A stretch of DNA of 64,000 nt from a virus (IMGVR_UViG_3300033150_001583:75585-139584); one strand, 5' to 3'. Shown: positions 180 through 61,235, counted from the first letter of the stretch. Notes: generated by a model not told the origin, from the sequence alone. Made by a program: numbers and translations.

Positions 180-1151
180 TTATATATTTAAACTGTTTAA
201 GGGACTGTGTTTATGATATTTTTTTCTTACCTCTTCGTCAGTAAAGTCAAGATATGCCTGCTGTGTAACTTCTACTGAACTATGTCCCAGTATTTTTGAT
301 AAAGTGAACCAATCGCCTCCGTTTAAGATGTAGTATTTGGCAAAATTATTTCTTAGTTGGTGTGGATGAACTTCAACCCTTGCCTTTTTCCCAGCTTGCC
401 TGAGATAAACTTCAAAGTTATTTCTCCGTAAGGGCGTTCCTTTTGTTGTGGGGAAAAGATACGGACTATCTATATATCTGTCTTTGTAATTTATCCATCG
501 TTTTAGTTCTAAATACATTTTCTTCCCAAAATGAACATACCTTTCTTTCCTGCTCTTAGTATTAGTAACTAGGATACTCTTGTTTTTGAGATCAACATCT
601 TTATCCTCTAGTGCTAAACATTCGGATATTCGCATCCCAGTGTCTAATAGTAATTTGGTAATGACGTAATTTCTGTATCCATGAAACGTTGTCGTATCAA
701 ATGCCTTAAAGAGCCTTTTAAGTTCTTCTTCGGACAGTGTTTTTTTAGTTTTTCTTTCTGTTTTGGGGATTTTTACTGACTTTGCTGGATTGTTTTTAAT
801 TATTTTTTCGCGGTGGAGCCAATTAAAGAAAACTTTTATGTTCCTGATATAGTTGGCAATAGTTGTTGATGATATTTTCCTTTTGTAGTCTGCCCTGTTT
901 TCTGGATTGTTCCACCTAAGTTTTCTGGGGTCAATGCAAACAGTATACTTTCCCCTTTCTTTTAGGTATTTAACGTAGCTTTGTATGTGCTCTTTTTTAA
1001 CTTTCTTTATTTGTGTGATTCCGTATTGGTCTTCGAGGAAAATAGCAAATAATCTTAAGGTTTGCTCGTAGGATGCCATTGTTTTTCTCGTTAAATTTCT
1101 GGCTATACAATCGTCCATAAAATCATCAATCTTAAAGTCAATATCTGTCAT
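180..1151 (-). CDS. int: Tyrosine recombinase/integrase
   Basis: Catalytic motifs TGMRISE (R), HQLR (HxxR), LGHSS and Y in QAYL; N-terminal SAM-like core-binding domain. Confidence 0.95.
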   Translation of the reverse strand: MTDIDFKIDDFMDDCIARNLTRKTMASYEQTLRLFAIFLEDQYGITQIKKVKKEHIQSYVKYLKERGKYTVCIDPRKLRWNNPENRADYKRKISSTTIANYIRNIKVFFNWLHREKIIKNNPAKSVKIPKTERKTKKTLSEEELKRLFKAFDTTTFHGYRNYVITKLLLDTGMRISECLALEDKDVDLKNKSILVTNTKSRKERYVHFGKKMYLELKRWINYKDRYIDSPYLFPTTKGTPLRRNNFEVYLRQAGKKARVEVHPHQLRNNFAKYYILNGGDWFTLSKILGHSSVEVTQQAYLDFTDEEVRKKYHKHSPLNSLNI

Positions 1152-1202
1152 TTCTCCTCCCCCTTTAATCCACTTTTAACGACATTTTTTGACATTTAAG
1201 AA

Positions 1203-1595
1203 ATTTAGTGCTTTACATTTTGGGCATAAAAATACCCCCAATCCATTGATTTTGTTGAACCAATAAATTGGAGGATTTAGTGGTTTGGGGTACATATATT
1301 TATTGCTATGAAAAGATATTTATACCCTTTTTGCTGTGGAATTCATTTGGAATACAACCGCTGAAACCCTTGTGGCAGTAAGGCTCAGCTTACTTTAGCT
1401 TCAATCCTTAGTTTGTCCGCTATCATGGCGATAAATTCCGAATCGTGGTTTTGCCGCTGGCGTTTTTTAAAACCTGAAACCTTAGAGCGTCAAGGCTTAG
1501 AGAGTTTTCAGAAAATTTTAACTTACCACTAAATCTCCGAAATTTATTGGTTTCAACCCCAAGAAATAGTAGCTTTTTTGCTTTAACCATTATAT
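1203..1595. repeat. Putative integrase arm-type sites ACCA(C/A)TAAAT on both sides of the core
   Basis: Copies at 1259-1268, 1275-1284 (rc), 1525-1534 and 1542-1551 (rc); 1256-1284 and 1525-1555 form a ~30-bp inverted repeat. Confidence 0.7.
1385..1443 (-). other. spo0A: attP core: duplicated 3' end of spo0A (SEFIAMIADKLRIEAKVS-stop)
   Basis: Minus-strand translation matches the conserved Spo0A C-terminus (B. subtilis ...NSEFIAMVADKLRLEHKAS). Similarity ends abruptly at ~1443, and the fragment lies ~230 bp from the int start. Confidence 0.9.
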
Positions 1596-1618
1596 CATTA
1601 TTTTTTAGGACAAGTCAA
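1589..1618 (-). promoter_or_regulatory. SigA-type promoter firing across the att core toward int
   Basis: TTGACT-18bp-TATAAT with TG extension. Confidence 0.6.
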
Positions 1619-1779
1619 TTTATTCCAACTTAAAATTATGTCGTTTTTTATTATTAGAATATGTAAATCAAATTATAATTCTACGCACAAACCGATATAC
1701 TAGAGCGCAAAAAATAAAAAAATAAAATACAAAAGGGCATAAAAAAAGGGGAACAAGCACAATCAAGTGCAAGCTCCCC

Positions 1780-2034
1780 TTAAAACCAAAGGACAAGTTC
1801 TTTGTCTGAGTTGTAAAGCATATTATCTTTTTTATCAAAAGGAGCTAAAGCATTAAAGTGTAAAATTTTTCGGCGCAAACAATTAATTGTACAAATATAA
1901 TTTTTTTCATTGTCATAAACAATCAATTTATCTCGATCAATAAAATTAATGGGCCATTTGTATTTTAACTTTAATACTAATCCTACAATTTTTATCTCAT
2001 AATGATTTCCTTTTTGAGAAGGATATAAGACCAT
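1780..2034 (-). CDS. Hypothetical protein
   Basis: ORF with RBS, followed by a hairpin at 1745-1781. Confidence 0.6.
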   Translation of the reverse strand: MVLYPSQKGNHYEIKIVGLVLKLKYKWPINFIDRDKLIVYDNEKNYICTINCLRRKILHFNALAPFDKKDNMLYNSDKELVLWF

Positions 2035-59038: not shown

Positions 59039-59638
59039 TTACCTTTCCTCCCTACATTTATTGCAATATCTACAAGGATGAGCATATTTAAAAAAAAACA
59101 TTTCTTTAACTAAAATTTTGTAAACCTCTTGAGCTAAACGATAACTTTCTCTCTGTACATGTCTTTTACAAAGTCTTTTATTTAACCATTCAAAAAACAT
59201 CCTACCATTGCCTGAAATATAGAATTTGGTTTCTACACCTAAAGGTAGTAAATAAGCAGCGTCTTCAATACTTTCGCCAGACTTAATGGCTTCTTTATAA
59301 AAGTCTTTATAAAAACTATAAGCAAACTTGTAAAATGCTTTATTCTTTACTGTTTCAGGTATAACAAATTTTGCCTCGCTCATATTTATGTGACGTGTAC
59401 TGCGTTCAGTGCGGGATTGCAAGCGATGGCGCAGAAGTTGAATATTAGCTTTAACGCTTAATCCTTCTACAAGAAACGAAAACCAACAATGTTCGAGCAC
59501 AGATAAGTGAGGTTCTGGTTTATTGTTGATACAGTGCTCAATTGTCTTCGGACTACATTGCTTATCTCTACAAATTGATAGAGCATCAATTATTGTTTGT
59601 GTACCCTTTATATTTTTATCAATTAACGTTACTTTCAT
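59039..59638 (-). CDS. thyX: FAD-dependent thymidylate synthase
   Basis: HLSVLEH, RHRxxSxxxxSxR and AAYLLP motifs. Confidence 0.9.
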   Translation of the reverse strand: MKVTLIDKNIKGTQTIIDALSICRDKQCSPKTIEHCINNKPEPHLSVLEHCWFSFLVEGLSVKANIQLLRHRLQSRTERSTRHINMSEAKFVIPETVKNKAFYKFAYSFYKDFYKEAIKSGESIEDAAYLLPLGVETKFYISGNGRMFFEWLNKRLCKRHVQRESYRLAQEVYKILVKEMFFFKYAHPCRYCNKCREER

Positions 59639-60101
59639 CTTTTCTTTTCCTCCTAATTTCGTTTATAGAATAATCTATGAAATGAAGCAAATTTCCTTCT
59701 CCAGCTAAGTCTTTATAACAAAAATAACTCTTAATATAATTAATATGATACCACATCAATTTACCTTCCCTTGTTTCTACTAAATCTCTTTTATTATGCA
59801 TGGATGATAAAACCATATAATATACATTTAGTTCAACATGACCATAACCAATAGTCATTATCCAGTAGAATTGTTCTATGTCCCATATACTAAAGTATGA
59901 TTCCTCTAAAACCTCTCTCAACGCTGCTTTATCTGGGCTTTCTCCCGCCAAAATTTTTCCGCCTAGACCATTAAGTTTGCCTTTATAGGGGTCTTTATTT
60001 CTCTTTAATAGCAATACTTGTTTTAAATCATGATCAAAAACTATACAAATTACATATCTTGTTTTCACGTCTTTTTGTCCTCTCTTTCTCTGATTAGGCA
60101 A
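59619..60101 (-). CDS. NUDIX hydrolase
   Basis: GGKILAGESPDKAALREVLEES Nudix box. Confidence 0.9.
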   Translation of the reverse strand: MPNQRKRGQKDVKTRYVICIVFDHDLKQVLLLKRNKDPYKGKLNGLGGKILAGESPDKAALREVLEESYFSIWDIEQFYWIMTIGYGHVELNVYYMVLSSMHNKRDLVETREGKLMWYHINYIKSYFCYKDLAGEGNLLHFIDYSINEIRRKRKDESNVN

Positions 60102-60197
60102 TTAAGTTTTCCATCAGAATAAAATAATTCTATACCTCCTTTATAAAGACATAAACCATATTTATTAAATTTGCAGTACCCATTGGGTACTTGACAC

Positions 60198-60551
60198 TTA
60201 ATGACTTTTCTCATCGAATGTAATTCCTCCCCTTAGTGCATATCCCACAATATCATTGTATGGATTTTCTTCAAAAGCTGTTTTATCTCCCCGCGAAATT
60301 CTACATAGTTTATTGAGAATTAAGATAACCAAAACTGCATCCTTAAATTGTTCATGTTTTATTCCATCTGGATATAGTATTTTTAGTATTTCAGGAACAA
60401 TGTCTGTTGCTTGACCATAGGATGTGTGTTTTTTATCAGTTTGTTTTCCAAGAATTTTTCCTAATTTTTCACATTCTCCTAACGCTTCACATAGATTTTC
60501 AGTCATACACTTAACATCAAAATTATATTTGTAATTCATTTTAGTCCCCAC
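60198..60551 (-). CDS. Nucleotide-modification-associated helical protein (DUF1599/DUF6378-like)
   Basis: K...YG...KL.RI...ENPYNDIVGYA pattern. Confidence 0.55.
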   Translation of the reverse strand: MGTKMNYKYNFDVKCMTENLCEALGECEKLGKILGKQTDKKHTSYGQATDIVPEILKILYPDGIKHEQFKDAVLVILILNKLCRISRGDKTAFEENPYNDIVGYALRGGITFDEKSH

Positions 60552-61235
60552 CTCCTAGAATCTTTCATGGAAGAAAAACTTGGTTGAACATCTTGGACAT
60601 TTCCAATACTCTTTCCAAGATGCTTCTAAAATACCTTCTGCTTTATAGTCTTCTAATCCGCGAAAATTTTTGTTAGTAGGAATAATTAATTCAATACCAT
60701 CTTCATTGCAAAAGATCAAATCATTCTTGCGATATAAGTCTATATCCCACAACAAGATACTTTCGCCACAGTTAGGACAACAACCATTTTTGCTTTCAAT
60801 ATAATTATTTTTATTGTCATTGAAATACCAATACTTTTTATAAATGCTTTCATATACTTTATTAGGAATACAAAAATATTCTAGTTTATTTGTTCTGCCG
60901 TCAAAAGTTTTAAAATTTATTACGTTTATGGTATAGGGCTTAAAACTCATACCAATGAAAGAATAACCATATCCTCCTTATACTTTTCTTTTTTATTTTC
61001 AACGCATACTTGACTAAATCTATACTCTTTAGCCATTACACTCTCTAGTGTTTTAATGTATTCTTTATCATCTAGCAGATCATATTTTGCAGCGTGGAGT
61101 CTAGAAAATATGCTGGCTAATGTTTTTATCGGTATAGCTATTTCAACATGACTAGGTTCAAGGTAGAAATATAAATCTTCCCATTTCATATCATCAGGTA
61201 AATCATTAATTACTTCTTTTAAGATTTCTTTAACA

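Follow-up and report, generated by a model that had tools for sequence, protein, structure and literature searches.

The final 64 kb of a 139,584-bp virus record (IMGVR_UViG_3300033150_001583, positions 75585 to 139584) carries many scattered copies of one asymmetric DNA word, ∼20 nucleotides (nt) long, in which an A/T tract is followed by a G-rich CG core. We refer to this whole 64,000-nt stretch as the window, and coordinates are window positions unless marked as genome positions. Selection on the word acts at the level of DNA. The explanation we favor, with a probability of roughly 0.5, is that the copies are dispersed double-stranded DNA (dsDNA) binding sites of a sequence-specific regulator that the phage itself would encode.

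The conserved unit is contiguous and reads AAAA-W-TTT-C/T-G-C/G-G-G-G, an A4T4 tract running into a G-rich core (CGCGGG, with the variants CGGCGG and TGCGGG), and it is followed by a purine- or A-rich tail. Within the window the consensus can also be written AAAAWTTTCGCGGG(R)AAA. The pattern AAAATTTTCGCGGG with at most two mismatches occurs 25 times in the window, compared to 0.64 expected from dinucleotide shuffles. A position weight matrix (PWM) scan of the 139.6-kb genome returned ∼115 hits versus a handful under a third-order Markov model; at a threshold of at least 14 bits, 143 positions were found versus 4.2 under that model. Single occurrences number ∼60 to 90, most of them within genes, and inverted pairs number ∼18; unpaired strong sites of at least 16 bits number 55. 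The sites named in a sequence-only reading of the window, both those on the plus strand (1862, 2661, 12377, 13878, 23587, 27507, 28188, 30603, and 31862) and those on the minus strand (33299, 33760, 34414, 43602, 47053, 51996, 52331, 59944, 60289, and 60658), are all in the PWM list.

The enrichment persists at synonymous sites. In coding sequences (CDSs), we observed 38 sense and 11 antisense copies of the 14-nt core at 16 bits or more, compared to 3.2 sense and 1.7 antisense copies after synonymous-codon shuffles within each gene, which keep both the protein and the codon usage; for the antisense copies this is an enrichment of ∼6-fold. The sequence-only reading had set this comparison beforehand as a test, which the word clearly passed. 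The sense copies use the three reading frames 16, 14, and 17 times, and the peptides that they encode are unrelated. The word also takes up the rarest codons (17 of 84 CGG, 14 of 177 GCG, and 10 of 154 TCG), in agreement with the earlier remark that many copies inside CDSs spend GC-rich codons. Taken together, the excess over codon shuffles, the use of all frames, the unrelated peptides, and the rare codons demonstrate selection at the DNA level.

On the sequences searched, the word is private to this phage. Neither the motif nor any analogous word was present in ∼20 kb of each of four relatives fetched, and in IMG/VR the exact 20-bp palindrome and a degenerate 18-mer gave only unrelated single matches, which we estimate to be about the number expected by chance. 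A 13-nt core pattern has 16 exact copies in the 0.14-Mb phage and at most 2 per genome in 401 sampled Clostridia, in which a reversed control pattern reached the same maximum (2). Five metagenome-assembled genomes (MAGs) that match a spo0A fragment of the phage, none of them established as the true host, hold 0 to 1 copies of the word.

The geometry of the paired copies bears on what might read them. Eighteen inverted-pair loci share a AAAATTTT center, and the offset between the two copies is exactly −6 in 13 of the 18. The arms are fully complementary in 2 of 18 double sites; in the others they vary independently, each within the half-site consensus. Because the arms mostly do not covary and yet each fits this consensus, the pattern points to protein half-sites rather than hairpins. 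One of them is a perfect inverted double site at 26442..26475, CCCCCGCG-AAAATTTT-CGCGGGGG with mirrored AAATA tails (halves of 28.6 bits each; arms 6/6), which is intergenic and lies ∼30 nt upstream of a 289-amino-acid (aa) gene at 25543-26409. A near-perfect one at 43350..43383 (27.6 + 26.9 bits; arms 6/6) lies ∼25 nt upstream of a small gene, and a third, at 17804..17836 between two genes, combines a plus half of 27.9 bits with a minus half of 17.1 bits. In the double site at 2734..2767 the arms are noncomplementary (2/6), and each of them fits the half-site consensus. Double sites had been reported earlier at 2741, 5082, 17809, 26442, 34130, and 43350; we recovered all except the one at 5082, and we found further ones at 13865, 29415, and 33753.

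The palindromes at 26442 and 43350 are long and perfect, as an RNA element or a DNA or RNA hairpin (a terminator, a processing site, or a cruciform) would have them, and the bias toward the sense strand of genes would suit a signal in mRNA. We nevertheless regard such an element as very improbable. Antisense copies are enriched, as given above, and the mRNAs of the early block carry the complement of the word. Intrinsic terminators combine complementary arms with a T-run; here most double-site arms are noncomplementary, a T-run follows none of the 18, and a terminator scan misses the double sites. Single sites cannot fold, and Rfam and tRNA scans of the window found nothing. We infer that a protein binds the word as dsDNA, sitting as a monomer on single sites and as a dimer on inverted pairs. 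One option raised by the sequence-only reading, a spread protein-binding site, agrees with this view and with the half-site geometry.

The same reading had put at its center a flip in polarity at ∼32.5 kb, with plus-strand copies dominating to the left (15 versus 6) and minus-strand copies dominating to the right (17 versus 4), and had held that strand bias did not explain the switch. Across the whole circular map, orientation mostly tracks the coding strand. Genes are on the plus strand across genome 1 to 75.7 kb and on the minus strand across genome 75.7 to 139 kb; the word is mostly plus in genome 1 to 75.7 kb and mostly minus in window 3 to 16 and 33 to 64 kb. For strong unpaired CDS sites, the plus:minus counts are 20:4 in genome 1 to 75 kb, 1:10 in window 33 to 64 kb, and 4:0 in window ∼16 to 32 kb. 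The observed ratio of sense to antisense copies is 3.5 to 4.2:1, and codon shuffles alone give ∼2:1. Since the GC skew of coding strands is +0.25 to +0.31 and the asymmetry of the word sits in its G-rich core, the sense bias is partly compositional.

A change-point near 32.5 kb does exist for strong sites. At 16 and 18 bits only, it falls at 31863-33299 (label-permutation P ≤ 0.001); at thresholds of 12 and 14 bits, it falls at the gene-strand switch at 1.9 to 3.3 kb. What did not hold is a single genome-wide switch. Plus:minus counts in successive 8-kb bins of the window are 1:4, 1:2, 2:1, 4:1, and then 0:3, 0:4, 2:3, and 1:5, so that polarity changes three times in the window, at ∼3, ∼16 to 24, and 32 to 33 kb. 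As window 3 to 16 kb is again minus, the left half is not uniformly plus, and the plus polarity is a local block at ∼16 to 32 kb. We could not reproduce the left-hand count, obtaining 14 plus and 16 minus sites at 13 bits or more; on the right the corresponding count is 7 plus and 19 minus. With palindromic partners removed, the strict single sites differ between left and right with a Fisher P of 0.032, and with duplicated cassettes collapsed the value is 0.066. Two of the six strict plus singles in the left half (27508 and 28190) lie in a duplicated 47-nt cassette that also holds the paired copies at 26453 and 29426, and these four are therefore not independent events. The flip is local and statistically fragile. 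More generally, before the orientation of a G-rich asymmetric word is taken to imply a genome-architecture signal, the statistics should be corrected for the effects of strand composition and of cassette duplication.

GC skew at third codon positions (GC3 skew) of the coding strand averages 0.165 to the left of the node and 0.271 to the right. The profile is patchy, being low only at 0 to 16 and 28 to 34 kb and normal at 17 to 28 kb, and so it has no step at the node. We also noted that GC3 skew is 0.03 to 0.12 in the integrase-proximal 16 kb and 0.26 to 0.33 in window 17000-28000, and that AT3 skew differs strongly between the plus and the minus gene blocks.

Could the word nevertheless be a polar signal of genome architecture that converges on the 32.7-kb node, as had been proposed? 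Such a signal might guide a translocase, in the manner of FtsK-orienting polar sequences (KOPS) or SpoIIIE recognition sequences (SRS), protect ends as Chi does, trap forks as Ter does, or direct packaging or ejection. Besides the change-point for strong sites and the difference in mean GC3 skew, the copies flanking the node speak for it: in window 26.4 to 34.5 kb there are 15 consensus copies versus 5.3 expected, the densest on both node flanks, and, with six pointing rightward and four leftward, they are directed toward one another over 1.4 kb devoid of the motif. This local arrangement holds up. If the ends of the virion DNA lay at the node, the orientation would suit Chi-type protection of both. 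KOPS, SRS, and Chi are 5- to 8-nt words of host chromosomes that host machineries read and whose orientation changes only at ori and dif. The word resembles them in being oriented, repeated within genes, and independent of reading frame, but it is 14 to 20 nt long, private to the phage, and not used by any sampled Clostridia chromosome, and it switches orientation several times. Its core almost never occurs outside it (28 of the 32 CGCGGG copies have a TT prefix and 25 of 32 have TTT), and its information extends over ∼20 nt, unlike a short self-standing word. Neither is there a single switch at an origin or terminus that matches replication skew: window 3 to 16 kb reverts to minus, lower thresholds move the change-point to the gene-strand switch, P is 0.03 to 0.07 for strict singles and collapsed duplicates, and GC3 skew makes no step. 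On the circular map, ∼35 kb separate the node from the terminase genes. With tracking of the coding strand, three switches, a long unit, and no use of the word in the 401 Clostridia, we consider this explanation quite improbable.

Under the regulator that we favor, orientation would have two layers. In genes, the G-rich strand lies mostly on the sense strand, a preference that is partly compositional and possibly functional, as polar roadblocks would require. In the second layer, copies are reversed in an immediate-early block of 5 to 16 kb (window ∼16 to 32 kb) that holds ArdA and a sigma-like gene; several of these reversed copies belong to the one duplicated regulatory cassette.

The position of the copies relative to genes suggests what the regulator might do. 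Strong hits number 29 in 17.7 kb of intergenic DNA versus 49 in 121.9 kb of CDS, a density ∼4 times higher between genes. From 15 to 60 nt upstream of start codons we found, for the two orientations, 12 copies versus 4.2 expected and 11 versus 2.0 expected. The sites adjoin terminators and sigma-A-like promoters of early units, where they occupy the gap from a terminator to the promoter that follows it (33753-33786 and 30604-30626) or a place just upstream of the ribosome-binding site (RBS). Because intergenic copies occupy these places, genome-wide control of transcription would be the most likely role, with operators at the early units and roadblock or silencing sites within genes.

Part of this evidence would also fit a promoter element that one of two sigma-like proteins of the phage recognizes. 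The A/T tract might serve as a melting or −10-like region and the CG core as a discriminator, with transcription starting within the purine tail; alternatively, the core would be a −35-like box read by a helix-turn-helix (HTH) of sigma region 4. From the reversed copies of the early block, antisense RNAs would then arise and switch early genes off. The asymmetric word mostly runs in the direction of the genes, co-oriented copies are enriched 15 to 60 nt upstream of starts, and the phage encodes an extracytoplasmic function (ECF)-like sigma factor (genome 1978-2514) as well as an orphan sigma-4-like protein. Large phages such as T4 have promoters in numbers that would be comparable to the copies seen here. 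A sigma promoter has two boxes at a fixed spacing, but in an alignment of 77 sites every position flanking the contiguous word, out to ±60 nt, stays at or below 0.25 bits, so that there is no second box. Fifteen of the 60 co-oriented sites lie at most 60 nt from a start (5.7 expected); the other 45, three quarters of the 60, are farther away and spread evenly in genes. Six copies are less than 30 nt from a start codon, too near for a −35 element. Reversed copies are equally enriched upstream of starts, and inverted pairs recur at a fixed offset. The structural operon at genome 3.4 to 3.5 kb is not headed by a copy, and genome 2.9 to 10.8 kb contains none. No phage RNA polymerase was found either; a promoter for such an enzyme was rejected as there was no T7-like match (control genomes also gave none) and the giant open reading frames (ORFs) are tape-measure and fiber genes. 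We consider a promoter element, one of the two main rivals, to be doubtful.

Copies inside genes are spaced every 1 to 1.6 kb, as might be expected of structural or segregation sites for which orientation does not matter. Here a nucleoid-, ParB/Noc-, or condensin-like protein would load at or bridge the sites and compact, tether, or partition the phage genome, and orientation would be a by-product of composition. A single site is close to a dyad (TTTTC-N5-GAAAA, with 12 of 15 positions self-complementary when read from the consensus), A4T4 tracts bend DNA, codon shuffles already give ∼2:1 in favor of sense, and the ParM partition system suggests a plasmid-like stage. The sense bias of 3.5 to 4.2:1 exceeds that compositional 2:1, however, the copies are enriched beside starts, promoters, and terminators, and no ParB-type DNA-binding protein was recognized in the window. 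On balance such sites, the other main rival, seem unlikely.

Which protein might read the word? We infer, as a weak candidate, a 296-aa orphan encoded at 30693-31580 on the minus strand, with a C-terminal HTH of the sigma-region-4/GerE type. This HTH is the only recognizable DNA-binding domain among 64 early-region proteins in a second Pfam batch, and in a batch of 127 proteins none of the best 25 families listed is DNA binding. Among 1.84 billion representatives, the protein has no homologue beyond the 40-residue HTH; its language-model look-alikes fall in sigma and GerE clusters, and its single-sequence AlphaFold2 model is poor (predicted local distance difference test score of 46) except for the HTH. 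The gene sits in the densest cluster of sites, inside the block of reversed copies. That a protein and a word both private to the phage lie side by side is suggestive, although most early proteins of this phage are orphans as well.

A more daring version makes the word a polar traffic code, in which this private sigma-4-type protein would read ∼100 oriented sites and, in every block of genes, stop RNA polymerase or let it pass in a single direction. The reader's own immediate-early block, which also holds ArdA, would be reversed and would either escape the block or be silenced later by antisense control. If so, a stoperator-like logic would have arisen independently in a large Firmicute phage, at a density inside CDSs several times that of described systems. 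We rate this as improbable.

The phage is temperate and ∼140 kb in size; an integrase, an attP-like spo0A fragment, and ParM are its temperate markers. No XRE/CI-type HTH scored above the cutoff in the genome, with one subthreshold match in a sigma-like protein, and the MrpR family (PF22823) is absent from it. A temperate phage without either would need an unconventional regulator. The Pfam batches, which had no specific profile for the gp71-family immunity repressors of Cluster A mycobacteriophages, contained no repressor-type HTH. A gene for a XerC/D-like recombinase adjoins TerL and is also kept in relatives without the motif; in an alignment to XerD, the enzyme retains R, K, HxxR, H, and Y. 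By eye, the palindrome fits the 11-6-11 geometry of a Xer-like site. We consider this recombinase unlikely as the binder, and the word unlikely as its recombination site, because the enzyme looks intact and ∼100 sites would scramble the genome. A dead-recombinase repressor of the MrpR type was rejected because the family is absent and the Xer-like protein keeps all catalytic residues. A link to Cas12f guides or protospacer-adjacent motifs was rejected too, as no spacer or orphan guide starts with CGCGGG, and possible resemblances to the ComA box and to Noc sites were set aside.

Several observations weigh against a dispersed regulator. Of the 78 strong hits, 49 (∼60%) are within CDSs, where they are spread evenly along the genes, unlike known operators and stoperators, which are intergenic. 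The ∼100 copies are several-fold more than in any cited precedent. The terminase-portal region (genome 2.9 to 10.8 kb) holds no copy, although a silencer of late genes might be expected to have sites there. The only HTH candidate resembles sigma factors and fits a promoter element at least as well. Finally, the nearest TerL relatives have at most 51% identity, and there is no close relative in which conservation could be followed.

By analogy, the closest known system would be the dispersed operators of phage P1, followed by L5-type stoperators and the SPbeta repeated element (SPBRE) with MrpR. Some P1 operators pair into inverted "bivalent" sites. Both P1 and this phage are large temperate phages with plasmid-type partition, and both disperse an asymmetric consensus of ∼17 to 20 bp genome-wide. 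P1 has 22 dispersed asymmetric 17-bp operators for C1 (PMC8546580); here there are ∼50 to 115 copies, mostly intragenic and with rare codons, and there is no C1 homologue. Phages of the L5/Cluster A type carry more than 20 asymmetric 13-mers (∼20 to 36) in short intergenic gaps, with an orientation that tracks transcription; they are bound by a monomeric HTH repressor, and reversed stoperators lose blocking (PMC9283540). The present phage likewise has many asymmetric copies genome-wide, more than 20 of them; their orientation goes with transcription in genome 1 to 75 kb and window 33 to 64 kb, where composition by itself would give ∼2:1, and runs against it in window ∼16 to 32 kb. It differs in that the copies are mostly intragenic (49 of 78 strong hits, compared to the promoter or short intergenic location that stoperators need), copies often form inverted pairs, a block of them is reversed, and a Firmicute would be the host. 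The loss of blocking in reversed stoperators offers, by analogy, a possible rationale for the reversed block. In SPbeta, the 15-bp SPBRE motif at ∼10 promoters is bound by MrpR (YopR) (PMC10516654), so that a repeated element in early intergenic regions is served by an unconventional master repressor of a family that is absent here. Relatives of the phage carry SPbeta-type genes, and the bipartite early-gene cassette is conceptually similar. The SPbeta element is confined to those early promoters, whereas here the word occurs genome-wide in genes and only the cassette subset (26.4 to 31.9 kb) is alike. Copy number, intragenic location with its codon cost, frequent inverted pairs, and the one reversed block set the word apart from all three systems.

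If a phage protein does read the word, these would be the densest known viral regulatory sites in a virus's own coding sequence, maintained at a cost in rare codons. They would belong to a lineage of 135- to 160-kb Clostridia phages without a cultured member or a recognizable repressor. They would give a handle on lysogeny and on early-to-late switching in these phages, as well as a compact, portable protein-site pair.

The node itself is a motif-free stretch (31900..33290) with one small gene (32152-32472), ∼450 nt of noncoding DNA, sigma-A-like promoters (32680-32652), and terminators (33033-33015 and 32136-32110). The minus strand here carries a succession of monocistronic units of the early type, each with its own promoter and terminator (sigma-A-like promoters at 34091, 33722, 32680, and 31806; terminators at 33816, 33033, 32136, and 30665). 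ArdA and the sigma-like gene lie just left of the node. On the right flank, a double site at 34122..34156 precedes the −35 of promoter 34091-34063 by ∼30 nt, and another at 33753..33786 (minus half, 29.3 bits; plus half, 20.8 bits) lies between terminator 33816-33793 and promoter 33722-33695. A strong single site at 33292..33314 (minus, 29.1 bits) is in the sense orientation inside CDS 33111-33662, and one at 34407..34429 (minus) overlaps a stop codon ∼35 nt upstream of the next start. On the left flank, the strongest plus site (31861..31883, 29.9 bits), which has a weak partner arm, is 55 nt upstream of the promoter-like sequence 31806-31777 that precedes the sigma-like gene. A strong single plus site at 30604..30626 directly follows the intrinsic terminator of that gene (30665-30631, minus strand). 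Farther left, a strong single plus site at 12375..12397 (25.7 bits) is antisense in the 3′ end of a small CDS.

The duplicated cassette spans 47 nt and, read on the sense strand, consists of a AGTATATCGGTYTGG box, a T-rich spacer, CCCGCGAAAATTTT, and an RBS. The copy at 27506..27554 (plus) shows the motif antisense to the genes, an A-rich spacer, and a CCAAACCGATATAC box; in the second clear copy, at 28188..28236 (plus), the motif adjoins the RBS of gene 27576-28172. A degenerate double site with a cassette box lies at 29415..29473, upstream of gene 29155-29412, and the plus half of the double site at 26442..26475 also heads a cassette copy. This bipartite unit (the motif and the box CCARACCGATATAC at a fixed spacing) heads successive early genes across 26453-31816. 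The copy at 31770-31816 has a TATAAT −10 in the place of the motif, behind a TCGGCA −35, which suggests that the cassettes may derive from a promoter. The noncoding leaders near the node hold other repeats: CCACAAGGGATT-type repeats at 30474-30501, 31705-31732, and 32729-32756, GTCAAAGTTAGTCAAAGG-type repeats at 31729-31750 and 32042-32063, and GCTTATATAAGC-type palindromes at 30538-30600 and 31770-31850.

The word is missing from some parts of the genome. Two adjacent deserts at genome 30.95 to 51.45 kb contain 1 site versus 13.4 expected and coincide with islands of fiber, sugar, and radical-SAM genes. This coincidence suggests that the word accumulates slowly in resident DNA and is missing from swapped-in modules. 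The desert modules and the terminase-portal region may have been acquired later than the rest of the genome.

The virus record has a 114-bp terminal overlap and is rated 100% complete, so that its map is in effect a circle, with contig ends at arbitrary points; its GC content is 33.7%. It encodes virion and packaging proteins (TerL, portal, major head protein, tape-measure, and fiber proteins), replication and recombination proteins (two primases, a UvsX-like recombinase, DnaB, DNA polymerase, an exonuclease, and a clamp-loader-like ATPase), and also radical-SAM enzymes, NrdD, a TnpB/Cas12f-like protein, ParM, ArdA, a CCA-adding enzyme, and two tyrosine recombinases. The attP-like fragment codes for the C terminus of Spo0A, which points to spore-forming Clostridia as the probable host. 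The fragment matches ten Clostridia MAGs; with at most 29 identical bases and GC contents of 44 to 61%, these were rejected as the host. The closest TerL relatives are on 135- to 163-kb contigs with SPβ-type genes (YonD_N, XepA, and YpsA), and a Megablast search of the node against deposited phages gave no match.

In genome 1978-5835, the ECF-like sigma gene, the XerC/D-like recombinase gene on the opposite strand, and a gene for a 223- to 244-aa protein are followed by TerL, and this block is kept in relatives with only 42 to 50% TerL identity. The tetranucleotide CCGG has one copy in 139.6 kb versus ∼88 to 113 expected. GATC (229 versus ∼410) and GCGC (58 versus ∼107) are depleted ∼2-fold, and CGCG is not depleted. 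The scarcity of CCGG looks like extreme restriction avoidance, and it points to a possible host system of the MspI/HpaII type. At window 50595-51529 on the minus strand, two ORFs encode a split C5-cytosine DNA methylase, one covering profile positions 1-196 and the other 253-322, and two TAA stops lie in the vicinity of the target-recognition region. The enzyme may be defective or may consist of two parts.

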